From the IMG/VR virus record IMGVR_UViG_3300045993_000918: a DNA stretch of 64,000 bases; one strand, 5' to 3'. Source of the DNA: a virus. Below are positions 5,150 through 45,851 of this stretch, piece by piece. Within the stretch, counting starts at the first letter, position 1. Every line of letters begins with the position of its first letter. The translations under genes and the position numbers were made by a program. The notes beneath the pieces were generated by a model, which saw only the letters and a program-made list of their open reading frames with translations, was not told the origin of the DNA and searched no databases.

Positions 5150-8100
5150 TCACACCGCCTTCAGCTTTGCACCCGGAGTGCCAGGCTTGAGACCGCGTCG
5201 GACGGCCGAGTGCTCCTGGGCGAGCAGCACAATCCCGAGGTACCAGGCGCGCATCCACTTGGCCCGGTCGCGAGTCGCCTGCTCCGAGACCGGAGACACA
5301 TCGGACCGGTCGCCGAGCACGGCCTCGGACGTCATCGTCAGCAGCTCGTAGCTCGCGGTGTGCGATCCGATCTTGTCGTCGGCCCAGCTGCCCGGCGCGT
5401 ACACCTTCCCGACGTACGGACTGTAGAACTCGTCGCGGAAGGCGATCTCGTACTTGCTGTAGCCGTCGCCCGGCAGGATCGTCGCCAGCTTGGTCTTCCG
5501 GTACTTGAACAGCTCCTTCGCAGTGCCCTTCTTGACCTTCCGTTCGCCCGGCTTCCCGCGGTAGCACGAGTCGGTCATCGCAGCCCACTCGAGCCGCTTC
5601 ACCCACGCAGCATTGTTCTCGACTGCGTGGTGTTCCTCGTGGATCACCGTCGAGACGGCTTCGTGGTCGCTCGGGAGGCTCAGCTCCGCGGTGCCGCGCG
5701 AGCCGCGGCGAGCGGCCCGCACCGTCACCTTGTGGCCGTCGCCCCAGGCCGTCTCGACCATGGCGGTCGGCATCTGGCGCAGGCCTTCCTTGATCCCGCG
5801 GGCCTGCACCCGGTCCGTGCTTTCGAGCGTGACCGGAGCCTCGTGCCAGGCGTAGCTCGGAAGGCGGTCGGCTGACGTTCCGTCGCTGTACTCGAAGTGC
5901 CAGGATCCATCGGACTCCTGGCGCACGACCGTGACCGTGACCGCGCGCTTGAACTTCGTCGGCCGGTTCCGGTCGCCGCCCGAGGAGACGAGGGTGCCGA
6001 CCTTGAGCTGGCTCGGGGAGACCCACGACCGATCGGTGTCCCAGACGTACGGCGCGTCGATCTCTTCGGGCGCCCCGAACGGCACACCCAGGCGCTGCAG
6101 CAGCTCGACGTAGATCGCCTTCCGGCGCTCGAAGTACAGTCGACGCTCGTTCCCGAGCGGGTTCCCGGTGCGTGACTTGAGCGTCTGCTCGAGCCGCTCC
6201 GCCCAGGCAGCGAGCTCGGGCCCCACGGCTGCGTCGTAGTCGCGCTCCCAGTCAGAGTCGATGTAGTTCTCGTGGTAGACGTGGTCGGTCCGGTCGAGCC
6301 AGGCCATGATGTAGTCGCGCCGGTTGGTCACGCCGCGGCTCTTCAGCACGTCGGCTGCGGCCTCGTCGAACGCCTGCCACTTCGCGTCGTCGAAGTCCGC
6401 CAGCAGCTGCCGGTACTTCTTGACCTCGGTCGCGTCGGGGAAGATCTTCGCGGCGTCGAGCCCTTCGGCGGCGAGCTGCGCATCGACCTCGTCCTCGAGC
6501 GCCTGGCCCATCGCGACGACGGCCTCGAGCTGCGCGACCGTCGTCTCGCCCGGGCCACCGTCCGGCATGTAGTCGACCTGCTGGATCGAGTTCTGACCAC
6601 GCTCGAGGCGCTTCTTGAGCATCAGACGGTTGCCCTCGAGCGCGTCCCGCGCTCGGTACCGGAAGTCAGCCGCCTCCTCCGCCTGCCTGCTCATCGAGAC
6701 GGAGAGGTAGTAGTCGTCGGTGTTGGTGTGACTCCAGTAGTACGGCGACGCGTAGTTCCTGACTCGCGAGAGGAAGGCCGGATCGAACTCGTTGGCCGGG
6801 TCGAGAACCGAAGCCGGAGGCTCGACCAGCGTGATGTCCTCCGGGTCCTTCATCCCGGCGTGCTGGATCGCCTCGTACCACACGGCCAGCGCGTTGCGGC
6901 GACGCTCGTAGAACTCCGCGAGGTTCTTCTTCTTGACGTAGCCCGCGTCGGTCTCAGGGGTCCACGACCCGTCCGCGAGGGCTCGGGCGTTCGCGGCCTT
7001 CTCGGTCGAGTCGGCGGCGTTCTTGCGCAGCCTCCGCGCCCGCTTCACCGGATCCCAGTTCTCCAGCGTCTCATCGCGCAGGTTCGACTTCCCAGGGACG
7101 CCGAACGTCTCGTAGGAACCGACGCGCATGACGTACTGGAACCCGTCAGTCGTGCGCTTCCCAAGCACCCGCACTGTGCTCTTCGGGGGCGGCACGTCCT
7201 CGCTGCTGGGGTGGTCCCAGTCGTTGACGAACCCACCTGGCTCGGCGGCCCGACGCTCATACTCCGCCCGGACAGCATCGACCCAGTCCTCCCAGGCCTT
7301 CGCCTCGGCCAGGTGGGCCGTGGCCTCGCGCTCGTAGCGCCCGACCATCGCGTCCTGCTCCGGGTCCCGGTCGCCCGTCGTCAGTCCGATCTCGCTCGGG
7401 TCGTCCGGGAGCTTCTCGCGTGCCCGCGCCACGCGTGCGTGCGCACGCTCGACCGCTTCCGGGCTGAGCACGGGGAGGAACCCAGTGACCGGATCGGCGG
7501 TCAGCCCCATCTGCTCTGGAGAGATCGCGTCGGCCGGGCCGGACCGCCCTCCGGCCTCACCTTCGGAGAATATCGGGCGGTAGTCCTCGAACCGGAGCGA
7601 GCCGTCGGGGTTCTGGTGGTTCGAGACGTCGTCATCCCAGTTCTGGTTCGTGGTATAGAGCGTCTTCCCCGAGCTGAGCTTGACTTCGGGGTGTGCCCGG
7701 CTCTCGTAGGTGAAGTGGTGCTCACCGACGGCCTCGAAGTCCGCGAACTTTGGCGGAGCGTCGACATGCCCGACCCACCGGGCGAAGTGCAGGTCACCGT
7801 CGACGTCGACGGTCACCATCGCGGTGCGCGACTTCTCCGACGTACGCTTGAAGTCCCAGGGTCCCTCAGCCCCGACCTCCATCGGCGCTGCGGTCACGAG
7901 GATGTGGTTCGCGTCGACGACCTCCGCGGCCTCGATCCAGTAGATGTGGTTCGCGTCGTCGTTCGGGAGCAGCTGGCGCCCTCCGTCACTGACGTGCAGC
8001 GTCCCGCCGTCCTGCGTGATCGCGCTGGAGTGGACCATCCCGTTGTTCCCGCTGAATGTGTCGCCGTAGAGCCAGACGGAGCGGTCCCCGGGGAGGTCGA

Positions 8101-11100
8101 TCGAGAGCGAGACATCGGCGGCGCCCCACTCCGCGGTCGGGACCTTCGACCACATCGCCGCGAACCCAGCCGCACTAGTCGGAGCGGCCACCCGCGCCTT
8201 GGCCGGGACGGAGACGTGCGGTGTCTCCTGCGCCGAGATGCTAGTCTGCGGGAGCGGCGGCGCGATGGCGTCGGGGGAGTCGGCGTCAGCGTCGTCACCG
8301 TCGAGCATCGAGATCCCGACGCCAGACAGCGCAAGCGCTGCGGCTCCGCTCGCGACCAGCTTCCGGATCAGCGAGGTGCGCATCCAGTTGTGACTGTGCA
8401 CCTGCCGGGTATCCAGCGACCTGGTCTTCGCCAGGATCTCCTCGGCGGTCGGGACGACCTCCAGGACCTCGTGCACCTCGTCCGCGTCGTACGGCAGGAC
8501 GTGGTCCCCGACCCTGATCTCGGACGCGGGCGAGCTCGCGTAGTGCCGCGGCGCCCAGCTCGAGCCTTCCCACCGGTCCGACTCGTCCACGGACGGCGCG
8601 GGGCCGGACGGCGCGGGGCCGGACGGCGCGTCGCGGCGCTCCCGGCCGCCCCCTCGCACGTGGTAACCCTCGTCGATCGACTCGGCGCTGACGGAGCCCG
8701 CCGAGCCACCCGCCGACGGACGCCACCGGCCGTCTTCGAGCTTCGTGTAGAACTGACGGCCGGGTCGCTCAACGATCGTACCAGGCGAGAGCGCGTCGAG
8801 CTCTCCGAGGCTCAGCCCCTCCTTCGGGTCGAAAGGTGTAGCAGTGTACGAGCCGTCGTCGTTGATCCACCCGGCGAACGGGTCGTCGACGCGGTTCTTC
8901 TTGGTCTTCTTCCGGTGGCTCGCGACCATCCCGGCGCGCACCTCGTCCGGGTCGACCCCACGCTTCTCAGCGATCGCAGCGACGACGATCTCCATCGCCT
9001 CCCAGCTCGCGCGCTTCTGCGAGTCGGGCTTGTAGCTCCAACCGATGTAGTCCGCGGCGCCGCTCCACCAGTTCAGCGCGGCGCGCTCGGTGCGGAACGT
9101 CTCGCGGATCCCGCCGTCGTTGATCACCAGCGGCTCGCCCGTGGCCGTCGGCGCGTTGGCCTTCGCCTGCGCCTCACGCTCGAGCTTCGCTTGCGCCCGG
9201 AGTTCGCGGTCCTCCGCGGCCTTCCGCTCGTCGGGGGAGAAGATCCTGGTCTTCCGGTTCAGCGCGCTGACCGGTGCGGTCGGGTAGCACGTCGTGCAGG
9301 CCCTCTCACCAGCGTCACCGACGATCCGGTCCTCCTTCTCGTCGGCATACTCCGGCAGCCAGATGAACTCAGTGCCGCCCGACCAGGTCCCGTCGGGGCG
9401 GTACTGCCCGGGGCGGCAGGTCGAGCACTCCCGGCTCTTGTGTACGTGCCCCCCGCCGGAGGACGTCACGAGGAAGGCGCGCGTCCACCTGCCGCGGCGG
9501 TGGAACTCGCCCCTGTAGACCTCTTCGGCGGCTACCGCGACGCGACGCCTCTCCTGCAGCGCGTCGTACCGGGTACGCAGGTCGACGGTCCCGTACTCCT
9601 GAGTGGTGTAGTTGTACTCCTGCTTCGGCTCGTAGGCCGCGAGCACGTCAGCGAACGGCATCGCGTACAGGCGGTCATCCTCGCGCCACTTCGGCTTCTC
9701 ACCGGCCTTCTCGGTCCCGCCCGGCGTCGCGCGCCGGATCTGGTCCTGCAGTCGCGCAACCTCAGTCGCGACCTCGTACTGCTCGACCCAGGTCTGCTCG
9801 GTGTTGACGTCGATCTGCTTCGGTGAGAGGTCCTGGATCGCCGCGACGTCCGGATGCAGCCAGTCCTCGGTGAGTGCGGGTCGGACCGGCGGAGGGGTGT
9901 CTACGGGGTCGGAGACCTCCAGCGGAGGCGGAGGGACGGGCGCAGGCTCCGGGTCCACCGCAACCGGACCCGGAGGCGTCTTCTGGTCTACGTACGCAGC
10001 GCCGCGGTGATCGGTGGCGCTGAGCGCGTCGCGGATGGCATCGGCGCGACTGCGGAACCCGAACCGCTCACGCTGCGTACCGGGGAGCACGCCGGGCTCC
10101 GGGGCCCACGACCAGAGCGTCGCGTCCTTCCGGCTGCTCACGATCCGGCCGGAGCCTGGGCTCTTCTTGTCGATGTACCCCTCGTACGACTTGACACGGC
10201 CGAGCTTGGTTCCGTCCGGGGCGTACACACCGTAGGCCTTGCCGTCCCCCGAGCCGCTCTCGAGGACGACGGCGAACGTCTCCGGTGCGACGGGCCCCGG
10301 GTTCGGTGCGATGGGCCTCGGGAGGCCTTCGTCGGCCTTCTCGGGGGCGACGTCGCCGCGGAGCAGAGCGGCCTTCCGCTGCAGCGCCCGCAGCTGCTCC
10401 TCACGGTCGAGCTGGTAACCAGCAGCGACAGCCCGCCGCACAGCATCGGTCAGGCTGTTCGTGTCGATCGTGTCCTGAGCGCCGATAAGGGCGACGCGAA
10501 GGTCCTCGTCGTCTCCGGCGGACACGGCGTAACGCAACCCGCCCCTGCGGGAGTAGTAAGTGTGGACGACGGCGCGGGTCTGCCGGTCGCCGACGTACAC
10601 GTCGAACGTGCTGGCGTACTGGGCGACCGCCCCGGTATCGGGTCGGACCCACACGGCCTCGCCATTTGAACCGTCCACGCCCTCGATCGGGACAGACCAA
10701 CGCCCATCGGAATCCTGCCGCGCCTGGGACGGCGGGGTCAGCCCGACGCCGATGGGCTTCTCGACCACCGGAGGCGGAAGCTCCGCGGGGTCGGCCGCCT
10801 CGACGGGCTCCGATCCGCCCCTCGCCTCCTTCAGCGCGGCGTCCCGGGCGTCCGACATGTCGGTCATGCCGGTGACGGCCATGTAGCGCTGGACAGCCGC
10901 GTTGCGGGTGTCCCGCTTCTTCATCTTCTCCCGGTCGCCCTTGGGGGACGCCTGCCAGGTCGCCTCGGCCTCCGCGACCGCCGCGGCGGCCGAAGCGCGG
11001 TCGGCGCCGGGCTCCGGTACGTTCGGGGCGGGGTCGGGCTTCGGCGTCGGTGGGATGACCGCCTTCTTCCTCGGGGTCGGGTTCGTGCCGCGCTTCGTCA

Positions 11101-12055
11101 GGGCCATGGTGACGGCACCGCGGCGAGCGGCGAGCTTTGCGGAGCTGGAGCGGTACTGCGCCATCAGCTCGTCGTGCGGGAGATCGGACCGGTTGGTGAC
11201 GTCCATCTCGTCGTAGTACTCGGCATCGGCCCGGCTCATCCGGAGGACGGCCCACAGCGCGATCACCTCGCCGGTGTTGATCGACTCGCCGCGAGCGATC
11301 TTCCGAGCTCCGGAGCCGATCCTGTCGGCGAGCTCCTCGAGGGTCGGAGCGCGGTCCTTGCCCTTCTTCTCATCGTAAACCGCGGAGAGGTTGTTGAGCC
11401 CTTGAGCGCGCAGGCCGTTGAACGCGTCCTCGAGGGTGCGACCGGTCTCCGGGTCGACCACGACCTGCTCGGTCGTCCACCCGACCCGGCCCGACTTGAT
11501 CGTGTCCTCGATCTCGTACGGAGTCATCGGCCGACCGTCGTCGCCCAGCGGCGGCCACTCCGAGCTGGTCGGCCCCGAGCTCGAGGGGATCTCGGCCTTG
11601 ACCGAGGCGGTCTGGACCTGGTCGTAGTCGAAAGTCGCGTCGGTACCTCCGGCGGCCTCGGACCGAAGCACGACCTTCCCGTCGCTGAACCCGACGACGC
11701 GGCCGGACGCTACCTCCCGTGCCCCGTCGAAGACCTGCGCGAACGCGCCGACCTCGATGAACCTCCCGTCCCGCCCGCGCGGGTGGGCGTCGGCGTCCCA
11801 GACGCGCCCGAGGGCGCCCGCGACGTCGGGTGCGATGCTTGCGTGCTCAGCCATGCGGCCGATTGTACTCGCAGTCAAGCCCATTTCACGACCGCGTCGC
11901 ACGATGTGCGTGGCCGAGCCGAAGAGGTCCGGCGTACGTCCGGCTGCGAGCAGCGCCGCGATCACGTCGTCGACGTCCTCGATCGGGAGCCGACCGTCCG
12001 GCGTGGCGACGCCAGCGCGGGCCGCCTCGGCAACCCGGGACGGGGTCCAGATCAC
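5150..12055 (-). CDS. giant mosaic (polyvalent-type) virion protein, 2301 aa
   Basis: Track ORF 5150..12433. First 126 codons are Arg-rich and overlap the portal gene, so start set to GTG 12055 (GTGA overlap with portal stop). Modules: HPRGRDGRFIE, Cys/His Zn-ribbon-like GHVHKSRECSTC...ACTTC, hydrophobic helix, WLYGDTF domain, C-terminal HEEHH (HExxH). Confidence 0.8.
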   Translation of the reverse strand: MIWTPSRVAEAARAGVATPDGRLPIEDVDDVIAALLAAGRTPDLFGSATHIVRRGREMGLTASTIGRMAEHASIAPDVAGALGRVWDADAHPRGRDGRFIEVGAFAQVFDGAREVASGRVVGFSDGKVVLRSEAAGGTDATFDYDQVQTASVKAEIPSSSGPTSSEWPPLGDDGRPMTPYEIEDTIKSGRVGWTTEQVVVDPETGRTLEDAFNGLRAQGLNNLSAVYDEKKGKDRAPTLEELADRIGSGARKIARGESINTGEVIALWAVLRMSRADAEYYDEMDVTNRSDLPHDELMAQYRSSSAKLAARRGAVTMALTKRGTNPTPRKKAVIPPTPKPDPAPNVPEPGADRASAAAAVAEAEATWQASPKGDREKMKKRDTRNAAVQRYMAVTGMTDMSDARDAALKEARGGSEPVEAADPAELPPPVVEKPIGVGLTPPSQARQDSDGRWSVPIEGVDGSNGEAVWVRPDTGAVAQYASTFDVYVGDRQTRAVVHTYYSRRGGLRYAVSAGDDEDLRVALIGAQDTIDTNSLTDAVRRAVAAGYQLDREEQLRALQRKAALLRGDVAPEKADEGLPRPIAPNPGPVAPETFAVVLESGSGDGKAYGVYAPDGTKLGRVKSYEGYIDKKSPGSGRIVSSRKDATLWSWAPEPGVLPGTQRERFGFRSRADAIRDALSATDHRGAAYVDQKTPPGPVAVDPEPAPVPPPPLEVSDPVDTPPPVRPALTEDWLHPDVAAIQDLSPKQIDVNTEQTWVEQYEVATEVARLQDQIRRATPGGTEKAGEKPKWREDDRLYAMPFADVLAAYEPKQEYNYTTQEYGTVDLRTRYDALQERRRVAVAAEEVYRGEFHRRGRWTRAFLVTSSGGGHVHKSRECSTCRPGQYRPDGTWSGGTEFIWLPEYADEKEDRIVGDAGERACTTCYPTAPVSALNRKTRIFSPDERKAAEDRELRAQAKLEREAQAKANAPTATGEPLVINDGGIRETFRTERAALNWWSGAADYIGWSYKPDSQKRASWEAMEIVVAAIAEKRGVDPDEVRAGMVASHRKKTKKNRVDDPFAGWINDDGSYTATPFDPKEGLSLGELDALSPGTIVERPGRQFYTKLEDGRWRPSAGGSAGSVSAESIDEGYHVRGGGRERRDAPSGPAPSGPAPSVDESDRWEGSSWAPRHYASSPASEIRVGDHVLPYDADEVHEVLEVVPTAEEILAKTRSLDTRQVHSHNWMRTSLIRKLVASGAAALALSGVGISMLDGDDADADSPDAIAPPLPQTSISAQETPHVSVPAKARVAAPTSAAGFAAMWSKVPTAEWGAADVSLSIDLPGDRSVWLYGDTFSGNNGMVHSSAITQDGGTLHVSDGGRQLLPNDDANHIYWIEAAEVVDANHILVTAAPMEVGAEGPWDFKRTSEKSRTAMVTVDVDGDLHFARWVGHVDAPPKFADFEAVGEHHFTYESRAHPEVKLSSGKTLYTTNQNWDDDVSNHQNPDGSLRFEDYRPIFSEGEAGGRSGPADAISPEQMGLTADPVTGFLPVLSPEAVERAHARVARAREKLPDDPSEIGLTTGDRDPEQDAMVGRYEREATAHLAEAKAWEDWVDAVRAEYERRAAEPGGFVNDWDHPSSEDVPPPKSTVRVLGKRTTDGFQYVMRVGSYETFGVPGKSNLRDETLENWDPVKRARRLRKNAADSTEKAANARALADGSWTPETDAGYVKKKNLAEFYERRRNALAVWYEAIQHAGMKDPEDITLVEPPASVLDPANEFDPAFLSRVRNYASPYYWSHTNTDDYYLSVSMSRQAEEAADFRYRARDALEGNRLMLKKRLERGQNSIQQVDYMPDGGPGETTVAQLEAVVAMGQALEDEVDAQLAAEGLDAAKIFPDATEVKKYRQLLADFDDAKWQAFDEAAADVLKSRGVTNRRDYIMAWLDRTDHVYHENYIDSDWERDYDAAVGPELAAWAERLEQTLKSRTGNPLGNERRLYFERRKAIYVELLQRLGVPFGAPEEIDAPYVWDTDRSWVSPSQLKVGTLVSSGGDRNRPTKFKRAVTVTVVRQESDGSWHFEYSDGTSADRLPSYAWHEAPVTLESTDRVQARGIKEGLRQMPTAMVETAWGDGHKVTVRAARRGSRGTAELSLPSDHEAVSTVIHEEHHAVENNAAWVKRLEWAAMTDSCYRGKPGERKVKKGTAKELFKYRKTKLATILPGDGYSKYEIAFRDEFYSPYVGKVYAPGSWADDKIGSHTASYELLTMTSEAVLGDRSDVSPVSEQATRDRAKWMRAWYLGIVLLAQEHSAVRRGLKPGTPGAKLKAV

Positions 12056-13635
12056 GCCGGGACCTCCTCCTGCATCGGCACGGCCGAGAGGCCCGGGGGC
12101 GCTGCCTCGATCGCGACCGGAGCCGGAGCGGATGTGGCGGCGAGCTGCTCCTGCAGCCCGGGCGGGAACGGACTGGCCGACTGGTTCGAGGTCTGCGCCT
12201 TCTTGAGCACCTCGGGCATGAGGAACATCAGCAGCGCCTGCGAGATCTCCTCCGGGATGATCGCCTTCTCGACTGCCATCCGCCAGGTGATCTCCTCCTC
12301 GGTCGGCGCGTCGTTGTCGCCGAACCCGTGCGCCGCGCGCCAGGCCTCGCCGGAGAGGATGTACTTCTCGTACCCGCTGTCGGCGTCGTTGCTGCGGTTC
12401 GGCCGGACGACGACCTCGGACGGGTCGTACCACACGACGATCCGGTTGACATCCTCGGTCTCGTAGCCCGCGGCGCGCAGCAGCGGCCGGAGGTAGATGT
12501 CCGTGATCGCGTCGCAGAACATCAGCGCCAGCGGCTCGATGTGCGCCTTGTACAGGCCCTCGTCGATCTGGATCGCGTTGCTGTATTTGACGTTGGCCAG
12601 ACCGGTCACGATGTCCTTCGGCACGTCGATCCCCTGCAGGATCCGCTCGAGCACGCGCTCAGCCCGGTTGACCAGCGCCTCGTCGCTGTCGCGGCTCAGC
12701 TGGATGTACGCGATCTTCTCACCCTGCTCGGCCGGACCGCGAACCAGCAGCGGGACAACGCTCGCGGCGCTGCCCTCGTCGCTGATCGGCTGGGTCATCG
12801 CGGCGACGAGCTCGACCTCGAACGGATCCTCGCCCTCGGTCTCCTCCTCCCCGGGTGTGCGGGCCGAGATCGAGAGCGAGTCGGGCACGAACAGCAGACC
12901 GGCGTTGAGCCGGGAGCGGGTCGTCGCCCGGATCATCCGGCTCAGCAGCAGCAGCTCCTCGCAGTCCCCGCGGAGCGCCTTCATCGAGCTGTCCGGGTCG
13001 GCGCTGAACCGCGGGTGCGCCCGCCAGATCCGGCCGATCGGGGTGTCCTTCGGGATGACCTTCTCCCGGGCGGTGCTGGTCGAGACCGAGGCCTTGAGCA
13101 CGATCCGCCCGGCGCTGTTGACCCGCAGCTCGTCGACGGACTTCACACTCCACCGGTTCTCGATGCACACGAGGTAGCACTCGCCCGGGACGCTCATGTT
13201 CAGGCCGTAGGAGCGCAGCATCGCCGGGATCCCGTCGCCCTGACTCAGCTGCTCCATGAAGCGCTGGGCGTCCTTCGCCAGCCTGGGGTCGATCGGAGTC
13301 AGGCCCTGCAGCGGGCCGTCGTCGGCGTACTGCCCCTCGCCTTTGACGCCCGCGGCATCCGTGACGTTCGTCGGCGGGGCGTCAGAGTTGAGCACGGCGG
13401 AGGCGACGAGACGCACCCGGCTCAGCACGTTCGCGACCAGACCAAACCCGAACTTGACCTCGCCGATCGCGTCGTAGTACGCCCAGGCCTCGGCCTGCCA
13501 CTCGGCGTTCGGGCCGCTCAGACGCTCGCGCATCTGCTCGGCCTCGCCCTTCTTCGAGAGCGAGACCTTCGCAGCCGACGCAGTCAGCGTGCGGGTCTGG
13601 TTGTACGGAGCGGCCCTAGGCCTTCCGAACACCAC
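12052..13635 (-). CDS. portal protein
   Basis: 527-aa track ORF downstream of the terminase genes. Size and composition typical of SPP1-type portals. Alternative start ATG 13533 (MRERLSG). Confidence 0.75.
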   Translation of the reverse strand: MVFGRPRAAPYNQTRTLTASAAKVSLSKKGEAEQMRERLSGPNAEWQAEAWAYYDAIGEVKFGFGLVANVLSRVRLVASAVLNSDAPPTNVTDAAGVKGEGQYADDGPLQGLTPIDPRLAKDAQRFMEQLSQGDGIPAMLRSYGLNMSVPGECYLVCIENRWSVKSVDELRVNSAGRIVLKASVSTSTAREKVIPKDTPIGRIWRAHPRFSADPDSSMKALRGDCEELLLLSRMIRATTRSRLNAGLLFVPDSLSISARTPGEEETEGEDPFEVELVAAMTQPISDEGSAASVVPLLVRGPAEQGEKIAYIQLSRDSDEALVNRAERVLERILQGIDVPKDIVTGLANVKYSNAIQIDEGLYKAHIEPLALMFCDAITDIYLRPLLRAAGYETEDVNRIVVWYDPSEVVVRPNRSNDADSGYEKYILSGEAWRAAHGFGDNDAPTEEEITWRMAVEKAIIPEEISQALLMFLMPEVLKKAQTSNQSASPFPPGLQEQLAATSAPAPVAIEAAPPGLSAVPMQEEVPA

Positions 13636-20034: not shown

Positions 20035-20700
20035 TCAAGGCGCGAGCAGCGGGTGCTCCGCCGAGGCGATCAGCTCGAACCCTTCCGGCCCGGCGCCGAT
20101 CGCCGGGAGCTCCGGGCGGTGCAGCCGGATCGGCTCGATCGAGGGCTCGACGGTGGCGAACCGCGGATCCTGCGGGAGCTGGATCAGCCAGCCGCGCTGA
20201 AGGTCGGCCAGCGTCTCGCGCAGCAGCCGGATGCCCATCGGGAAGAGCGCCTCGGCCCACAGGTCGCTGGGGGTCCAGCGCGGGTCGACGTGGCAGAAGT
20301 CCTGCTTCGCGATCGGGCCGGTGTCGACCCCGGCGTCGGCGTAGAACCAGGTGAACCCGGTGACCGGGTCGCCCATCCGGACGGTCCACTCGACGCTCGA
20401 GCGCCCACGGTGCCGCGGGAGCAGGGAGGGGTGCCCGACCAGCGCACCGAGCCGGGTCGCCGCTCGGCTGTCCTTCCCGATGTAGGCGTGACAGTGTGCC
20501 GCGACGATCAGGTCGGCCTGCACCATCTTTACCCAGGCCGGGTGGAGCTCCGGCGCCCAGCTGAGGCCGTGGCGACCCGCAGCGTCATGCAGCTTGTCGT
20601 CGAGCGGCGCGACCACGCCGACGACTGCGTGCCCGTCCTTGAGCACCTGCTCGAGCGCGGCGACGCCGAACGACTTCGTGCCTGCAACGATGACCCTCAT
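20035..20700 (-). CDS. formyltransferase (Fmt/PurN/ArnA-like N-terminal domain)
   Basis: MRVIVAGTKSFG...HPSLLPRHRGRSSVEW...DAGVDTGPI motifs; SD AAGAGGTAGGGG. Confidence 0.7.
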   Translation of the reverse strand: MRVIVAGTKSFGVAALEQVLKDGHAVVGVVAPLDDKLHDAAGRHGLSWAPELHPAWVKMVQADLIVAAHCHAYIGKDSRAATRLGALVGHPSLLPRHRGRSSVEWTVRMGDPVTGFTWFYADAGVDTGPIAKQDFCHVDPRWTPSDLWAEALFPMGIRLLRETLADLQRGWLIQLPQDPRFATVEPSIEPIRLHRPELPAIGAGPEGFELIASAEHPLLAP

Positions 20701-20705
20701 GACCC

Positions 20706-21233
20706 CTACCTCTTGTACCTGAACCCGGCGACGCTTCTCCAATGGCCTCCAAACTCCATCTTCAAGTCCTTGCTCACCCGGCTCCCGGCCCCGCCGATCA
20801 GCTTCTGGCTGACCTGGTGCCAGTCCGGGTTCCGACGCAGCGCAGCGCAGAGCGCGGGGTGCGCGGTGTGCATCAGCGTCGGGACGGGCGAGCCGATGAA
20901 GCCGTCGCCGAGGAACTCGCGCTCAGCCAGGTGGTTCAGGAACCGCAGGCCCACGCCAGCACCCTGCCACTCCGGGTGCGTCACCATCCGGCAGGCTCGG
21001 GCGATCCGACGCTGGCCCGCCCAGAACCCGCTCATCCCGAGGAAGACGACCGGGTCGCCGCTGACCGCCTCGAACCCGGTGTAGGCGGTGCTGAACGGCA
21101 TCGGCTTCGCGTCGTGGAGGTAGTGGTGGTAGCGCGCCCACTCGAACCATGGACCCCAGCCCGTCTCGACCACCTCGAGCACGATCGGCTCGCGCTGGAA
21201 GATCTCGGGCGCCGCGAGCACCAGCTGCGTCAT
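20706..21233 (-). CDS. GNAT-like acetyltransferase
   Basis: 175 aa; THPEWQGAGVGLRFLNHL (Q/RxxGxG-type acetyl-CoA loop); ATGA overlap with ATPase stop. Confidence 0.55.
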   Translation of the reverse strand: MTQLVLAAPEIFQREPIVLEVVETGWGPWFEWARYHHYLHDAKPMPFSTAYTGFEAVSGDPVVFLGMSGFWAGQRRIARACRMVTHPEWQGAGVGLRFLNHLAEREFLGDGFIGSPVPTLMHTAHPALCAALRRNPDWHQVSQKLIGGAGSRVSKDLKMEFGGHWRSVAGFRYKR

Positions 21234-21922
21234 GCGACCACCTGGCCGACCGTGGGTGAGTCGAAGCCGTCGCGGCGCGTGACCGTCGGCTCGACGGCCG
21301 ACCAGTCGTCGCCTACGGTCGGGACGCCCTCGAGGCTCGTGCGCAGCACCCAGTCGGGCTGGAGCCAGGGCAGGATGTCGTCGTGCGGGGTCAGCATGAC
21401 GATCCGGCGTTCCTCCCCGCGACGCCACGCCTTCGCGAATGCGCCCGCCCCCACACGTGCGACGTTCCGGTCCAGCACGCTGGTGAACTCGTCGAACCAG
21501 ACCCGGTCCGGACGGTCGGCGAGCAGCCGGGCGAGCTCGGCGCGGTACTTCTCGCCGTTCGAGAGGACGTGGTAGGGCCGGAGCCACGAAGGTACCGTTC
21601 CGAGGCCGACGGAGGCCAGCACGGACGTCACGGCGTCGAAGTCGCCGTCGGGGGCGATCGCGTCGATGAGGGCCGAAGAAGGCCACGGTTCGGAGCCCCA
21701 CTCGGTCCAGCCCTCGGCGCTCAGCGCCCGGCCGACGCTGGTCTTCCCCGAGCCGGACGGCCCGACGACGACGCCGATCCGCCAGCCGTCCTCCTCGACC
21801 GGGATCTCGACGTCGAAGCAGAACTCCGCACCCATGCTCTCTTGGACGTTGAAAAGCCCCAGCGCGCGGTCGACGCGGTAAGAGCGCGGGAGCTCCAGGC
21901 GGTTCCGTACCTCGATCCTCAT
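21230..21922 (-). CDS. ABC-type ATPase
   Basis: Walker A GPSGSGKT, signature-like LSNGEKYRAELARLL, Walker B VWFDEF; TGATG overlap with ParB-like stop. Confidence 0.7.
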   Translation of the reverse strand: MRIEVRNRLELPRSYRVDRALGLFNVQESMGAEFCFDVEIPVEEDGWRIGVVVGPSGSGKTSVGRALSAEGWTEWGSEPWPSSALIDAIAPDGDFDAVTSVLASVGLGTVPSWLRPYHVLSNGEKYRAELARLLADRPDRVWFDEFTSVLDRNVARVGAGAFAKAWRRGEERRIVMLTPHDDILPWLQPDWVLRTSLEGVPTVGDDWSAVEPTVTRRDGFDSPTVGQVVA

Positions 21923-22494
21923 CAGATCGCCACGACGCGGACGGTCAGCCCTTCGGCCACGAATCGGTCGTAGAGCTCGCGCTGGTGGTCCTCGTCGCGG
22001 CACTCGATCACCAGGCCGAACTGGCGCTCGAAGTCCTCGTCGTCAGGCTCGGGCACGATCTTCTCGTCCTCGTCGACGAACACCGCGAGCTCCTCGAGGT
22101 CGACGTCGAAGCCCGTGCCGGTCAGGTCGCCGAGCTCCTCGAGCACGCGGTCGAGGATGTCGCGGTTGTAGCCCGCCCGGTCGGAGGTGGCGTTGTCCGC
22201 GAGCAGAATCCGGATCGCCTCGACGTCGTCGGCGACCACGACCATGCACGGGACCTCCGCGATCCCCTTGCGCCGGGCAGACTCGACCCGGCCGTGCCCG
22301 GCGAGGATCTGCCAGGCCTGGGCGGGGAGGCCGTCGTCGGCCGGGAGCTCGCGGACGGTGACGGTGCCGTAGAAGTCGTTGGTCTCCATCGAGCTGTCGA
22401 TCGCGGCCTCGTCATGAGTGCGCGGGTTGTCCGGGTGCGGGACCAGCTGCACGATCGGGAGGGTCAGGAACTGCTGCTCACGGATGACTGCCAT
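21922..22494 (-). CDS. ParB/Srx-like N-terminal (nuclease) domain protein
   Basis: LVPHPDNPRTHDE...LAGHGRVESARRKG motif. ATG 6 nt downstream of TGATAGACT. Confidence 0.7.
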   Translation of the reverse strand: MAVIREQQFLTLPIVQLVPHPDNPRTHDEAAIDSSMETNDFYGTVTVRELPADDGLPAQAWQILAGHGRVESARRKGIAEVPCMVVVADDVEAIRILLADNATSDRAGYNRDILDRVLEELGDLTGTGFDVDLEELAVFVDEDEKIVPEPDDEDFERQFGLVIECRDEDHQRELYDRFVAEGLTVRVVAI

Positions 22495-23943: not shown

Positions 23944-24029
23944 GTTACTCCTAGCTCCGGCCCCGCAGCGTCCTGACGCGCAGGGCGTGTTGTACGACCC
24001 ATCCTAGCTGCCTGGCCGGGGATTCCGCC

Positions 24030-24356
24030 TCAGAGCACGCTGTGGTACTCCTCGTGGTAAGCCCGGGCGGCCCGCGAGAGCTGGATCCGATAGATCCCCT
24101 CGACGTACCTGGTGGCCGTCGCGGCGTCGCCCGCCTCCCACGCCCTCCGAGCCTCTTCGTACTTGGCCGGATCGCCGGTCTTGGCGAACAGCAGCGCCGC
24201 CCACACCGTCATCCCCGGGTGCATCGGCGTACGCTCACGCAGCCGCCGCATCGTCCAGTGGTAGAGCCAGTTCGGCAGCTGGTTCGCCGCCTGCGACTTC
24301 GCGATGAGGATCGCCTCAGCGTAGTCACGCTCGGTGACCTCACTCTCGTCAGCCAT
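24030..24356 (-). CDS. hypothetical protein (108 aa)
   Basis: Track ORF, overlaps upstream gene end. Confidence 0.6.
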   Translation of the reverse strand: MADESEVTERDYAEAILIAKSQAANQLPNWLYHWTMRRLRERTPMHPGMTVWAALLFAKTGDPAKYEEARRAWEAGDAATATRYVEGIYRIQLSRAARAYHEEYHSVL

Positions 24357-24630
24357 TGGTCCCCTCCTCCTCTCGCCGAGCGATCGATGCGTTGGCGAAG
24401 AACACGACCTCGTCGAGGTGCGTGAGTGCGAGCGCCTGCTCCCGGCTGGCGGGGGTCAGCTCCACGATCAGCCGGGCCAGGTGCAGCGCCCCGGAGCGGA
24501 GCGCGACGTAGCGCTCGGGCTGATCGCCCGTCGGTGCGTGGTAGCTGAACCGCGTGAGCAGCTCCTCGTCGGTCAGGAGCGCGTCAGTCCGGATGGTGAC
24601 CTCCACCGGGATCTTCGGCATCTGGGCCAT
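24349..24630 (-). CDS. hypothetical protein (93 aa)
   Basis: ATG 24630 in TGATG overlap; FSYHAPTGDQPERYVALR...SREQALALTHLDEVVFFANASIAR. Confidence 0.6.
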   Translation of the reverse strand: MAQMPKIPVEVTIRTDALLTDEELLTRFSYHAPTGDQPERYVALRSGALHLARLIVELTPASREQALALTHLDEVVFFANASIARREEEGTNG

Positions 24631-24887
24631 CAGACTACCTCCTCGTACGTGGCCTCGAAGATCTCGGGCTTGCACGGGTAGAACTCGCCCGCGACGCCGC
24701 AGATGATCCAGTCACCGAGGTCGGCGCGCATCGGCCCCTCGAGCGTCTGGATTAGCAGGAACGCGACGCGGTTGCCCTCCTTGACCATCGATGCCCCACA
24801 CCACTCAACGAGTGGCGCGTACGGCTGCTCGACCCGGCGGGCCTCGATCACGACCGGCAGCTTCCGGAACCGGCCCATCACGGCCAC
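24630..24887 (-). CDS. hypothetical protein (85 aa)
   Basis: Track ORF; KLPVVIEARRV...GDWIICGVAGEFYPCKPEIFEATYE. Confidence 0.6.
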   Translation of the reverse strand: MAVMGRFRKLPVVIEARRVEQPYAPLVEWCGASMVKEGNRVAFLLIQTLEGPMRADLGDWIICGVAGEFYPCKPEIFEATYEEVV

Positions 24888-25261
24888 CTCCCCGTCTCTC
24901 GTGCGAACATCGCCATCGAGGCGTACACCAGCGTGTCGCTCCAGGTGTCGAAGCTCGGCGTCTTGCCCTTGAGCATCGCATCGGCGACGCGCTGCACCTT
25001 CCCGTAGACGTAGAGGAAGCAGCCGATCTCGACGGCCTCCCGCTCCTCGATCTCGCGGCCCTGGCCGCGGGCGAAGATCCGGCCCATCTCGACCAGCGAG
25101 TTAGTCCCGTACTCCTCAGCCTTCGCCGCGATCGTCGGCGCGTTCGCGTCGACCCAGGCGTGGAACCAGTCCGGGTACGCGACCGGCGGGGCGACGACCC
25201 CGGTGATCGCGGACGGGTGCCGGGTCATCGACTCCGACCGCATGCCCTCCTCGTCCGTCAC
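24878..25261 (-). CDS. MazG-like all-alpha NTP pyrophosphohydrolase candidate (MazZ-like)
   Basis: 127 aa, GTGA-coupled to the purA-like gene. Acidic helix motifs AEEYG, EIEEREAVE, DTWSD. Assignment is by pattern and context only. Confidence 0.4.
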   Translation of the reverse strand: MTDEEGMRSESMTRHPSAITGVVAPPVAYPDWFHAWVDANAPTIAAKAEEYGTNSLVEMGRIFARGQGREIEEREAVEIGCFLYVYGKVQRVADAMLKGKTPSFDTWSDTLVYASMAMFARETGRWP

Positions 25262-26340
25262 AGCCAGGCCGATGGGTTGTAGACGCTCATCGTGTTCGGG
25301 CCCGTACCGACCAGCGCGACCGGCGCGGCAGCCTCGATCGCGATCGTGTCGAGGAAGTCGCGGTGCGTCTCCTTGAACTCGTCCGGCCGGGCATCACGCA
25401 GCTCCGGGTACTTCTGGTCGAGCATCGAGAGCGCGAGCACGACGTCGCGGCTCGGGCCGCCGTTCGCGCGCACCGCCTGGCTGACCCAGTCGGCGTCCCA
25501 GTCCCCGACGCGACGCACCTTCTTCGTCACCGTGGTCAGCTCCTCGGGCAGCCCGAGCGCCTCCCAGGTCGTCTCGGACGCGAGGTATCCGCTGTTGCCC
25601 GCGACGCGGATCGGATAGACCCGCACGACGACCACGACGCGGACCCGGCTCACGCCCTCGGCCCACGGGCTGACCCCGGCCATCGAGAGGAAGTCGATCG
25701 CCCGGCAGTCCGCCGTGGTGCACTTCGGGTAGTGCCCGGCGTGCAGCCCGAGCTGGTAGCCCTGGACGCCCTCGATCACGACGTGCCAGCCCTCGCTCAG
25801 GCGCCGGGAGAGCAGCGCCGCGGTGTTGACCACCCGGCCGGGCACCCCGCCGTTGACGGCGAAGTCGCCGATCAGCCGGGCGCCGCGCAGCATCCGGTCC
25901 GCCCGAGCGGCGCCGACGCCCTTCGCCGTCGAACCGATCGCCTTGTGCAGGTCGAGCGCAGCCTCGGTGTCCTTGTGCTTCTGCTCGATCACCGTCGACT
26001 CCGGGTCGACCCAGAGCCGATCCGCGATCCGGTGCCCGGCGGCCTCGAGCTCGGAGACCTCGGACCGGAGCACGTCGAGGTCGATCTCGGACCCGGCGGC
26101 GATCACCAGCGCGGCGTTCGGGTTGACGAAGCTGACGGGCACGTGCCGGAGTGGCCAGGCGCGGCCGGAGTCGTCGTAGACCGTGTGCCCAGCCTGGCTC
26201 CCCCCGACCCGCACCCCGACATGCGGGGTCTTCGAGCTCGCGTCCTCGTAGGCGAGGAAGCCGGTCGCGGCCCCCTTCGCCTCCGAGCCCGCCTGGCCGC
26301 CTACCACCACGGTGATCAGGCCCTGTCGTGAGATGGTCAT
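25258..26340 (-). CDS. purZ: short adenylosuccinate synthetase homologue, PurZ candidate
   Basis: 360 aa. Aligns by eye to PurA: GGQAGSEAKGA vs GDEGKGK P-loop (Asp to Ser), GGSQAGHTV, IGSTAKGVG, IEGVQGYQLG..GHYP, TTVTKKVRRVGDWD, VGTGPN. SD AGGAGGA. Confidence 0.7.
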   Translation of the reverse strand: MTISRQGLITVVVGGQAGSEAKGAATGFLAYEDASSKTPHVGVRVGGSQAGHTVYDDSGRAWPLRHVPVSFVNPNAALVIAAGSEIDLDVLRSEVSELEAAGHRIADRLWVDPESTVIEQKHKDTEAALDLHKAIGSTAKGVGAARADRMLRGARLIGDFAVNGGVPGRVVNTAALLSRRLSEGWHVVIEGVQGYQLGLHAGHYPKCTTADCRAIDFLSMAGVSPWAEGVSRVRVVVVVRVYPIRVAGNSGYLASETTWEALGLPEELTTVTKKVRRVGDWDADWVSQAVRANGGPSRDVVLALSMLDQKYPELRDARPDEFKETHRDFLDTIAIEAAAPVALVGTGPNTMSVYNPSAWL

Positions 26341-26371
26341 CAGTCCTCCTGCTAGGGGCGGTCGGGAACAG

Positions 26372-26406
26372 CCCGGCCCGGCCCCAATCGTAGCAGCCGG
26401 GCCGGG
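26372..26406 (-). promoter_or_regulatory. perfect 11-bp stem-loop in purZ leader
   Basis: cccggcccggc / gccgggccggg arms, 13-nt loop, about 30 nt upstream of ATG 26340. Confidence 0.6.
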
Positions 26407-26417
26407 ACTCTAGCTCG

Positions 26418-26426
26418 AGGCTACCA
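26418..26426 (-). promoter_or_regulatory. extended -10 TGGTAGCCT upstream of purZ candidate
   Basis: Overlaps the stop of the upstream gene. Transcript would begin just before the 11-bp hairpin at 26372..26406. Confidence 0.35.
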
Positions 26427-27020
26427 GCACTGCTTCGGCGGGTAGCTCCAGTTCGAGCGCCCCTTGCCACCAGCGAAGAGCTTGTAGAACGCGGCGTCCT
26501 GGATCGCGCTCGAGTAGTCCTTCGCCGAGCCGGGCAGGCCGGTCACGGCCCGCCAGGTCGAGTCGATGAACTGGTACGCGCCAGACGCACTCGAGTAGCG
26601 ATTCTGCGCCCGGTAGTTCCCGTGGCTCTCCCGGGCAACGATGCAGCGCCGGACCGCCTCGACCCAGGCCGAGCCGCGCGCCGCTGGCGGCAGCGCCTTC
26701 GGCTTCTGGACGACCTTCTTCTTCTGCTGGACGACCGCCTCCTTGACCGCGGGCCTCGGAGCGGCCTTCTTCGCCGCGGGCGCGACCACGGCCACCCGCG
26801 TGGTCGTTCGCGAGGCGGGCGGTGCGAGCCGCAGGCGGGCGACCGGGTCCGGCACGAGGTCCGGGGACGCCCCGTCGTACACCACGTTGGGGGTCTCGGC
26901 GGCCTGAGCGACCTGGGTCGGGCCGTCGGGCCCGAGGGCCGCCCCGAGAACGACGAAAGCCCCGGCGACTGCGATCGCGGCCAGGGCCTTCGGGGAGCGA
27001 ACAGAGCTGTGTACCTTCAC
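26421..27020 (-). CDS. secreted peptidoglycan hydrolase, Rpf/transglycosylase-like C-terminal domain
   Basis: GTG 27020 after GAGGAAGAGG. N-terminal signal/TM ALAAIAVAGAFVVLGAA. C-terminal CIVARESHGNYRAQNRYSSASGAYQFIDSTW. Confidence 0.65.
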   Translation of the reverse strand: MKVHSSVRSPKALAAIAVAGAFVVLGAALGPDGPTQVAQAAETPNVVYDGASPDLVPDPVARLRLAPPASRTTTRVAVVAPAAKKAAPRPAVKEAVVQQKKKVVQKPKALPPAARGSAWVEAVRRCIVARESHGNYRAQNRYSSASGAYQFIDSTWRAVTGLPGSAKDYSSAIQDAAFYKLFAGGKGRSNWSYPPKQCW

Positions 27021-27200
27021 TTCGACCTCTTCCTCGTGGCCGACGCTGACCCTGAGGCACGGTCCCGCGAGGTACCGCGCCCGGTTCGAATGCTCGCGTT
27101 CACGATGAGCAGAGATGGGCCAGCGTCGACGTGCGAGGGTGGCCGGTCGGTTGACCGACCACCGCCGAACCCGCGGTAGCAAGCCCGCGGGGACTCACCC

Positions 27201-27209
27201 AGCCTACCA
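27201..27209 (-). promoter_or_regulatory. extended -10 TGGTAGGCT
   Basis: Starts the leader of about 175 nt for the Rpf-like gene. Confidence 0.4.
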
Positions 27210-27222
27210 CAGGCCGGGCGAC

Positions 27223-32015: not shown

Positions 32016-32024
32016 AGCCTACCA
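32016..32024 (-). promoter_or_regulatory. extended -10 TGGTAGGCT, leaderless DNA polymerase start
   Basis: 6 nt upstream of ATG 32009. Confidence 0.45.
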
Positions 32025-32049
32025 CAGGGGTCCGACAATCGGGCTCCCC

Positions 32050-37280: not shown

Positions 37281-37445
37281 TCAGGAGTCTACCACAGGGA
37301 CGCGGAGCTCGAGCTCCTGGCGGCCAGTACCGGCGCAGCGCGGACAGCGAGCCAGCGTGCTGAGCAGAGCCCCGGTGAGCCGGTCGGTGACCGTCACGGG
37401 CACTCGACCGTCCGAGCAGCTCGGGCAGGGCGCGGACTCAGCCAC
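37281..37445 (-). CDS. small zinc-ribbon protein (54 aa)
   Basis: Hand-found; CPSCSDG...CPRCAGTG; overlaps upstream stop. Confidence 0.4.
   Translation of the reverse strand: MAESAPCPSCSDGRVPVTVTDRLTGALLSTLARCPRCAGTGRQELELRVPVVDS
37286..37294 (-). promoter_or_regulatory. extended -10 TGGTAGACT, leaderless purB start
   Basis: 7 nt upstream of ATG 37278. Confidence 0.45.
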
Positions 37446-45043: not shown

Positions 45044-45300
45044 TGTCCGCCCCTGTCCGGTCCGCGGGTCTCTCCGTACCCGACGTCCTCCTTGTCCAGG
45101 AAGATCGTGGTGAAGCGCCGACCCCGCTCTGGGCTGGCCGGGTACAGCGCCCTGAACCCCCAACCGTCCGGGACGGTCAGGATCAGCGTCTCGCCGTCGT
45201 CGACCAGCTTCAACTCAGCTCGGCCGCGCTCGAGCGAGAGCGCGATCACTGCCCTCGGCTCGGGCTCGGCCTCGACGATGGCCGTCCTGTCCTCGCTCAT
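45040..45300 (-). CDS. hypothetical protein (86 aa)
   Basis: Track ORF. Confidence 0.6.
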   Translation of the reverse strand: MSEDRTAIVEAEPEPRAVIALSLERGRAELKLVDDGETLILTVPDGWGFRALYPASPERGRRFTTIFLDKEDVGYGETRGPDRGGQ

Positions 45301-45851
45301 CTCTGTCCTCTCGTGTTGCGCCGGAGCGGTACGCCCAGCGTGCGTCTTAGCTGGCTCAGTGCGTTCAGTAGGGAGCGGTGGTCGCTGGCCGTGACGGGCA
45401 GCGTCACCAGCCGGTCGCCGTTCGAGTTCGAGACGGCTAGGTGCTTCCCGCCCTGCTCAACCTCGAACCCGTCGGCTCGTAGCATCGTGATGAGCTCCTC
45501 CCAGCTCGTCGGGTTCAGGTTCCCCGCCCCACCTCGCCCCCGGGCGACCCCGGTCGTGTTCTTCGCGACCTCGGCCTTCCTCGCGGCCGTCTCCGCCCGG
45601 GCCTCGTCCATCTGGTCCGGCGTGCGCACCCGGAACCCGACGACGATGTCCAGCGTGGACAGCACCGCGGTGACGTGGCCGTCGTGGACCTGCAGCCCGC
45701 CGAACGGGTGGTCGTGCGGGGTCGAGTGGTACGAGCCGCGTCTGCTCCGGTGTCGGAGCGCGAGCGCCGCTACCTCGTCGGCGATCCCGTCGCGGATCGC
45801 TCGGTCTAGTACGGACGGCGCCCACGGGACGCCTCCGTGCCAGGCGCTCAT
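45297..45851 (-). CDS. protein with C-terminal HicA-like domain
   Basis: C-terminal SWEELITMLRADGFEVEQGGKHLAVSNSNGDRLVTLPV...SLLNALSQLRR resembles the HicA/YcfA pattern (GF..., G-x-H, tvP). Confidence 0.5.
   Translation of the reverse strand: MSAWHGGVPWAPSVLDRAIRDGIADEVAALALRHRSRRGSYHSTPHDHPFGGLQVHDGHVTAVLSTLDIVVGFRVRTPDQMDEARAETAARKAEVAKNTTGVARGRGGAGNLNPTSWEELITMLRADGFEVEQGGKHLAVSNSNGDRLVTLPVTASDHRSLLNALSQLRRTLGVPLRRNTRGQR

Follow-up and report, generated by a model that had tools for sequence, protein, structure and literature searches.

The closest described relatives of the locus presented here are the gene modules of phages in which 2-aminoadenine (Z) takes the place of adenine. Such modules are built around homologues of adenylosuccinate synthetase (PurA), namely PurZ, as in phages phiVC8 and S-2L (structures 6FM0 and 7ODX), and PurZ0, whose structure 7VF6 comes from Gordonia phage Archimedes (PMC12884076). 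In all 147 phage sequences assigned to the PurZ group, a Ser stands in place of the catalytic Asp, and phiVC8 and S-2L carry DatZ and MazZ instead of the DutZ and DmtZ of PurZ0 phages (PMC12884076). The dutZ gene was present in 98 of 98 PurZ0 genomes, 77 of them with a dmtZ-dutZ fusion, and the two enzymes have been shown to turn dATP and dGTP into monophosphates and to hydrolyse dAMP or move its deoxyribose phosphate to the Z base, while DUF5664-1 is confined to the PurZ0 phages of Arthrobacter (PMC12884076). Furthermore, S14 and T262 of phiVC8 PurZ have been named as the residues for the 2-amino group, and F295 and Y298 of the ATP-type PurZ stack on adenine (bioRxiv 2025.10.22.683976). Here, we describe a 64,000-nucleotide (nt) stretch of viral DNA, IMG/VR record IMGVR_UViG_3300045993_000918, referred to at its full length as the window. 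Very probably, its minus strand carries a purZ0 gene, encoding a protein of 360 amino acids (aa), within a complete PurZ0-type module that encodes the Z pathway, and the gene directly behind it belongs to an unnamed helical family distinct from MazZ, which we call family X.

The 360-aa protein is a short PurA homologue, as the initial annotation had it, with a length in the range of archaeal PurA and PurZ (about 340 to 365 aa). The only Pfam family seen on it was PF00709 (Adenylsucc_synt, 2.1e-35). More specific models matched as well: phrog_1211, annotated in PHROG as "2-aminooxy adenylosuccinate synthetase", at 2.3e-80, and the NCBIfam model NF038379 (succino-amino-deoxyadenylate synthase PurZ) with 314.9 bits (4.6e-94), above its curated cut-off of 300. 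All PurA equivalog models scored far under their cut-offs, and the archaeal PurA model NF003295 matched at 1.4e-64. The P-loop reads GGQAGSEAKGA, and its Ser, residue 19, aligns to Asp13 of E. coli-type PurA, to the equivalent Asp of P. horikoshii PurA, and to S14 and S23 of the phiVC8 and S-2L enzymes, in agreement with the first reading of a Ser at the catalytic Asp. Thr269 aligns to T262 of phiVC8, where PurA of P. horikoshii and Salmonella has Gly, and Lys274 occupies the position of PurA R303. Taken together, NF038379, phrog_1211, the Ser19/Thr269 pair and the partner genes described below strongly support the proposed identity as a PurZ.

The subtype came out differently from the S-2L/phiVC8 kind first suggested, and sequence comparison assigns the protein to PurZ0, the GTP-type PurZ variant of actinophages. 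Its best solved relative is 7VF6 (E value 8e-85, 288 bits), ahead of Pyrococcus PurA (5K7X/2D7U; 2e-39, 139 bits) and of the PurZ of phiVC8 (7e-30, 107 bits) and S-2L (3e-28, 102 bits). A tblastn search against 50,697 phage records gave bimodal identities, with 44 to 51% (E 1e-70 to 1e-88) to PurZ0 of Streptomyces, Arthrobacter, Microbacterium and Gordonia phages and 28 to 33% (E 1e-15 to 1e-24) to PurZ from S-2L and from phages of Vibrio, Acinetobacter and Burkholderia. The Asp that gives PurA its guanine specificity (D333 in E. coli) is retained as D308, whereas phiVC8 has N297 and S-2L a Gln; M306 and Q309 stand where phiVC8 has F295 and Y298 and S-2L a Phe and a Tyr. Since D308 is kept and the ATP-stacking Phe/Tyr pair of the phiVC8 and S-2L enzymes is absent, the PurZ0 subtype is indicated, and D308 points to GTP as the phosphate donor. 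In a neighbour-joining tree, PurA and PurZ together split from a PurZ0 set that includes the 360-aa protein (71% bootstrap).

The likeness to actinophage PurZ0 extends to details, namely the Ser for the catalytic Asp, the GSEAKG segment, a TTVTKKVRRVG loop and an S/T-M-x-D guanine motif, at pairwise identities of 45 to 55%. The phiVC8 and S-2L enzymes have the same reaction class and the same Ser/Thr 2-amino signature but are only 30 to 35% identical. Archaeal PurA, represented by P. horikoshii, shares the short architecture and a T-M-L-D guanine pocket with the 360-aa protein; however, it keeps the catalytic Asp, has Gly at the position of PurZ T262 and has Arg at that of Lys274.

The genes around purZ0 fit this assignment. 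Along the minus strand, a gene for a DpoZ-like family A DNA polymerase (PolA) is followed by purZ0, the family X gene, four small genes and a DmtZ-DutZ fusion, the sixth gene 3' of purZ0, and a gene for a PurB-like lyase lies further upstream of purZ0 in the same module (Table 1). The order from PolA through purZ0 and X to (dmtZ)dutZ is that of the actinophage PurZ0 phages. The 285-aa fusion protein combines an N-terminal NDT/DNPH1-like domain with a C-terminal dUTPase-fold domain. Over its whole length it can be aligned to the NDT-Dut fusions that PurZ0 phages encode (about 290 to 317 aa; HunterDalle gp49, 6e-47; Hiyaa gp69, 2e-41), and in Ghobes its two parts correspond to separate proteins, gp53 (NDT) and gp55 (Dut). 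The described counterpart is the DmtZ-DutZ fusion of Arthrobacter phage Wayne (PMC12884076); the gene in the window lies 3' of purZ0, its product shows an identity of 35 to 38%, and the activity of this product is predicted. The polymerase has NF038381 (phage_DpoZ_2; 308 bits, 1.3e-91) as by far its top NCBIfam match and is 30 to 35% identical to PolA of PurZ0 phages. The lyase matches TIGR00928 (purB) at 1.6e-58, is 33% identical to the PurB-like protein of Hiyaa and is a candidate for the conversion of the succino-amino-deoxyadenylate (dSMP) to the monophosphate of Z (dZMP). Homology thus supports a PurZ0-type Z pathway in the window well, and the cluster is the known PurZ0-type Z-genome module, here in a new lineage.

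If the encoded enzymes act as their homologues do, the DutZ domain would yield dAMP from dATP and, from dGTP, the dGMP on which PurZ0 acts, and the DmtZ domain would destroy the dAMP or pass its deoxyribose phosphate to the Z base. PurZ0 would then form dSMP, the phage PurB-like lyase or the host PurB would release dZMP, host kinases would raise it to dZTP, and the DpoZ-like polymerase would put dZTP into DNA, so that virion DNA would contain 2-aminoadenine in place of adenine. The source is a phage, as the terminase, portal, tape measure, primase-polymerase and helicase encoded in the window indicate. Positions 24000..27200 had no DNA-level match in a megablast search of the same 50,697 phage records, the portal is at most 48% identical to that of any isolate, and the structural genes are closest to those of unrelated large actinophages; by sequence, this is a novel actinophage lineage that lacks a close cultured relative. 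If the module works as proposed, the genome of an uncultivated high-GC phage is written with 2-aminoadenine, with effects on restriction sensitivity, on behaviour in sequencing and PCR and on evasion of host defence, and PurZ0-type Z-genomes reach into a lineage that cultivation has not sampled closely.

The element of this module that is new is the gene directly after purZ0. The TGA stop of purZ0 (25260..25258) overlaps the GTG start of the X gene (25261..25259) as GTGA, and both open reading frames (ORFs) look coding because their GC content at third codon positions (GC3) is 0.95 to 0.96 in a window of 69.7% GC. The 127-aa product is acidic (pI 5.0; 18 Asp and Glu against 13 Lys and Arg), and an AlphaFold2 model built with a 150-sequence alignment consists of four helices (residues 29-51, 54-66, 73-97 and 104-123) at a mean predicted local distance difference test score (pLDDT) of 90, rising to about 97 over residues 30-127. 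The initial description of an acidic, all-helical protein coupled to purZ0 was therefore accurate. When 1.84 billion cluster representatives were searched with a profile, 918 members were recovered with E <= 1e-3, of which 567 reached E <= 1e-10. The conserved unit spans about 100 residues and is mostly C-terminal, ending 12 residues or fewer from the protein end in 133 of 161 proteins, and the N-terminal extensions are highly variable, some of them zinc-finger-like. K47, Y51, G60, K88 and R91 are invariant, and W32, W33, E78, D105, D109, Y113, W126 and P127 nearly so, the last two within a C-terminal G-x-W-P. Conserved charged residues (K47, E50, E75, E78, K88, R91, D105 and D109) form stripes along three of the helices.

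The initial annotation had taken this gene for a MazG-like partner equivalent to MazZ, and on this point our comparisons disagree with it. The 127-aa protein had no match in Pfam, PHROG, NCBIfam or the sequences of the PDB, and when 150 family members were scanned one by one, none showed a Pfam or PHROG family for the X domain and none (0 of 150) hit a MazG-type model. Neither the single sequence nor the 150-sequence profile found anything among PDB sequences. Profiles of MazG, MazG-like proteins and DUF550 gave no match, comparison with DUF5664 was null by hmmscan and reached a probability of at most 0.14% by hhalign, and comparison with MazZ of S-2L (gp23) and phiVC8 (p26) was null with hidden Markov models (HMMs) and gave P 0.13 by hhalign. 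Foldseek searches of two X models against the PDB produced nothing significant (best E values 1.9 and 2.4), and the MazG-like protein DR2231 appeared with a probability of only 0.15 to 0.33 and a template modelling (TM) score of only 0.34 to 0.38. The EExxE...ExxD signature of MazG is absent from X, and neither MazZ nor DUF5664 is encoded elsewhere in the window. In summary, X resembles the MazZ, DUF550 and DUF5664 diphosphohydrolases in being small and helical and in occupying the slot directly 3' of the purZ gene, but homology to them is undetectable by hmmscan, HMM or hhalign comparison and the MazG fold is unmatched. A MazG/MazZ homologue is not supported, and the positional analogy alone survives.

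What ties X to the pathway is its constant association with purZ0. By tblastn, 26 phage records contain X, and every one belongs to a PurZ0 phage (15 of Microbacterium, 6 of Gordonia and 5 of Streptomyces), in each case as a "hypothetical protein" directly after purZ0; Theresita also has X, beneath the tblastn threshold. None of 105 Arthrobacter phage records contained X, and the PurZ0 phages of this host have DUF5664 instead in the slot after purZ0. Narrow X alignments yielded 17 further loci (5 viral and 12 metagenomic), 16 of which have a purZ of the Ser/Asp type upstream of X on the same strand; the remaining one ends 146 nt upstream of X and is uninformative. In every informative locus among those compared (L001 to L040), X lies 3' of purZ0 on the same strand, and even the distant members P0047 and P0150 keep the order PolA ... 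purZ0 - X - NDT-Dut. Moreover, two natural PurZ0-X fusions occur (P0140, 506 aa; P0123, 485 aa), and gp50 and gp51 of Archimedes, the source phage of the PurZ0 crystal structure, show the same 4-nt overlap, gp51 being an X gene of about 128 aa. Thus, X accompanies purZ0 in Streptomyces, Gordonia and Microbacterium phages and on metagenomic purZ0 contigs. The accounts of the PurZ0 pathway in PMC12884076 and bioRxiv 2025.10.22.683976 make no mention of family X; the residual novelty of the locus is this family, for which Pfam, PHROG and NCBIfam offer no model and which pathway models built on PurZ0, DutZ, DmtZ and DUF5664 omit. Orthologues in cultured phages (Ghobes gp51, Archimedes gp51, Hiyaa gp68 and Johann gp55) make X directly testable.

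Distant relatives of X were sought by fold. In a Foldseek search of BFVD, the top matches outside the family were DUF6378 (probability up to 0.99, E 0.03 to 0.07) and Nmad1/DUF1599. Using a DUF6378 (PF19905) alignment built from gp29 of Salmonella phage 9NA, hhalign returned P 0.002 to 0.003 over 72 to 84 columns, yet an HH probability of 11 to 15%; conserved positions of DUF6378 are matched there by K88, R91, D105, D109 and Y113 of X. Of the 150 X members, only one touched PF19905 (E 0.0055). A distant kinship between X and DUF6378 is likely but short of proof, and it does not establish a connection to MazG. DUF6378 has neither an assigned function nor a solved structure; its profile found no relative in the PDB, hence no function follows from the link, and in the literature DUF6378 and Nmad1 receive passing mentions only. 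In 9NA (L041, 11763-13187), the DUF6378 gene (gp29) and the dUTPase gene gp28 point away from each other, and an Asgard-virus operon combines Nmad1/DUF1599 with a dUTPase and ThyX. Small helical domains of the DUF6378/Nmad1 kind recur next to enzymes of the dUTPase fold, and X may give a first functional foothold for these domains beside phage dUTPases.

Some points weigh against the reading of a working PurZ0 module. Ala17 replaces the aromatic residue (F12 in phiVC8, W11 in PurA) that precedes Gly-Ser in the P-loop; elsewhere in the family this position holds Phe, Tyr, Trp or Leu, with Leu in two metagenomic PurZ0 proteins, and the Ala itself is found in two metagenomic PurZ0 proteins with the variant GGQAGSEGKG (loci L030 and L031). 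The neighbour-joining tree is rough and poorly resolved within PurZ0, the polymerase remains below the NF038381 cut-off of 350, and the lyase also scores under the curated cut-off of its model. The dGMP specificity and GTP use of this PurZ0, like the Z in the virion, are read across from homologues, and the part that X plays, which could be that of a nucleotide-binding or nucleotide-hydrolysing helper or of a regulatory subunit, is likewise deduced. Finally, the nucleoside triphosphate preferences of PurZ0 and PurZ are ordered in PMC12884076 contrary to its own introduction, in which PurZ uses ATP; that order is probably inverted. An alternative is an ordinary PurA acting as an auxiliary metabolic gene, which would boost AMP synthesis from IMP in a phage with normal adenine DNA. 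Pfam recognises Adenylsucc_synt only, the archaeal PurA model matches, and the formyltransferase described below could, together with the PurB-like gene, point to general purine metabolism; nevertheless, the PurZ model exceeds its cut-off and every PurA equivalog stays far under its own, the Ser for the catalytic Asp is that of all 147 PurZ-group phage sequences (PMC12884076), and dutZ-dmtZ and a DpoZ-like polymerase lie in the same cluster, so that we find an ordinary PurA scarcely credible. It is also highly improbable that the protein is a PurZ that uses ATP, like those of S-2L and phiVC8, with MazZ as its partner. Such a PurZ would share with PurZ0 both the Ser and the NF038379 match, and a small helical gene follows purZ in S-2L and phiVC8 too, but here F295/Y298 are absent and the guanine-specificity Asp is kept, the match to PurZ structures is about 180 bits weaker than to PurZ0, dutZ-dmtZ takes the place of a DatZ-like HD gene in the 10 kb around purZ0, and MazZ, to which X is unrelated by HMM and hhalign, is not encoded in the window. 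We retain the PurZ0-type module as the interpretation of the locus.

The function of X is a less settled matter. Most likely, X acts directly with PurZ0, and the evidence is about evenly balanced on whether X is a core part of the PurZ0-type route to Z-DNA that has so far escaped notice, either as a new enzyme or as a subunit that sets the specificity of PurZ0 or DutZ or regulates them. We hold it possible, though on balance doubtful, that X is a non-homologous analogue of MazZ and DUF5664, a new all-alpha dNTP pyrophosphohydrolase that would supply dGMP, remove dATP or both. Its slot is that of MazZ in S-2L and phiVC8 and of DUF5664 in Arthrobacter PurZ0 phages, X and DUF5664 are complementary in distribution among PurZ0 phages, a window that encodes neither MazZ nor DUF5664 would leave room for such an enzyme, the PurZ0-X fusions fit consecutive pathway steps, and conserved charged stripes run along three helices. 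On the other hand, a model of pLDDT 90 shows no MazG-like fold (best PDB E value 2.4), the MazG signature is absent, the DutZ domain already provides dATP/dGTP diphosphatase activity in PurZ0 phages, and DUF6378, the nearest distant relative, has no recognised activity. That X is instead a non-catalytic regulatory, specificity or assembly subunit binding PurZ0 or DutZ seems rather unlikely, although it would suit a helical domain of small size whose C-terminal G-x-W-P hardly varies while its N-terminal extensions, often zinc-finger-like, vary strongly, a fusion partner that is PurZ0 itself, and the distantly similar DUF6378 and Nmad1/DUF1599 genes that likewise adjoin dUTPase genes; the translational coupling of purZ0 and X would then imply a matched stoichiometry. 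Invariant Lys, Arg and Asp on helix faces are, however, more typical of a ligand-binding or catalytic site, and Archimedes PurZ0 was reportedly crystallised and active without X, which counts against a subunit role.

Upstream of purZ0, whose ORF begins with the ATG at 26340 behind an AGGAGG at 26345..26350, the initial annotation had placed a promoter of its own and an 11-bp leader hairpin. The proposed promoter, TGGTAGCCT, is present as a single exact copy, and the TGG-TAG within it doubles as the final Trp codon and stop of ORF 26421..27182, which lies upstream. The related motif TGGTAGNCT is enriched, with 4 copies against 0.59 +/- 0.77 expected in shuffles (0 of 100 shuffles reach four), all four on the coding (minus) strand. 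Three copies share the 13-nt CCTGTGGTAGRCT (32016-32028, 37286-37298 and 27201-27213, minus strand); two of them precede the start codons of the DpoZ-like and PurB-like genes (ATG in both) by 6 to 7 nt, and the third copy is upstream of ORF 26421..27182. In actinobacteria, extended -10 elements (TGN-TANNNT) can drive leaderless transcripts, and the CCTGTGGTAGRCT sites look like such elements. The purZ0 copy has just the 9-mer core in common with these stronger sites, a sigma-70 consensus scan gave no promoter hit, and TGGTAGCCT is plausible as a candidate purZ0 promoter. The hairpin is real and has 11 G-C pairs and one G-U. The segment 26335..26430 folds at -47.1 kcal/mol (z = -1.96), a value that 8 of 200 shuffles equal, so that in DNA this rich in GC its advantage over shuffled sequence is only modest. 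No T-tract terminator was called; the hairpin may belong to a purZ0 leader or may equally terminate the gene upstream.

Table 1. Coordinates of the Z-module genes and of the elements upstream of purZ0 in the window
Feature	Position	Strand	Evidence or remark
purZ0, 360 aa	25258..26340	-	NF038379, phrog_1211, 7VF6, signature residues
Family X, 127 aa	24878..25261	-	GTG start; coupled to purZ0 by GTGA overlap
82-aa ORF, phrog_419 family	24630..24878	-	ATG at 24878; phrog_419 2.6e-29
DmtZ-DutZ fusion, 285 aa	22781..23638	-	PF00692 5.7e-22 and weak PF05014
DpoZ-like family A DNA polymerase, 663 aa	30018..32009	-	NF038381, PF00476
PurB-like adenylosuccinate lyase, 398 aa	36082..37278	-	TIGR00928, PF00206
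TGGTAGCCT, candidate purZ0 promoter	26418..26426	-	Extended -10-like, TGN-TANNNT
GC-rich hairpin, 12-bp stem and 11-nt loop	26372..26406	-	Follows the upstream stop and precedes the purZ0 ribosome-binding site

Almost every ORF with a strong GC3 bias in the window lies on the minus strand. The 82-aa ORF overlaps X as TGATG and is called as a gene in the near-identical contigs L009 to L012; it was not found at the seven phage-record loci L001 to L007. A second match is to the N-terminal portion of phrog_4159, a PHROG with the annotation nucleotide pyrophosphohydrolase, which suggests that the small phrog_419 domain is fused to MazG-type enzymes elsewhere. The idea that the 127-aa ORF and an 85-aa ORF are the two halves of the 211-aa gp47 (DUF5664) of Arthrobacter phage was rejected, as no similarity was found. 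Two genes 3' of X (24349-24630, minus strand), a small protein has an Acb2/Tad1 hairpin domain (PF24729, 1.8e-16; phrog_1454) and may be a nucleotide sponge against the cyclic oligonucleotide-based antiphage signalling system (CBASS) or against Thoeris.

Other genes of the window, all on the minus strand, were recorded along the way. A 235-aa formyltransferase (20035-20742; PF00551, 3.4e-21) has the fmt and PurN models as its best NCBIfam matches, both far under cut-off, and is annotated in PHROG as phosphoribosylglycinamide formyltransferase; a link to purine metabolism is possible. Directly 3' of the nucleotide-metabolism block (21230-22494), a ParB-like protein of 190 aa overlaps an ABC-ATPase-like protein of 257 aa (phrog_11143, 4e-68). 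Beside the portal gene lies an ORF of 2427 aa (5150-12433) with two weak matches in its middle region to PHROGs that have no assigned function. A protein with a weak HicA-toxin domain is encoded at 45297-45851, and a glycosyltransferase-like protein (phrog_13126, 4.5e-99) at 55109-56476.

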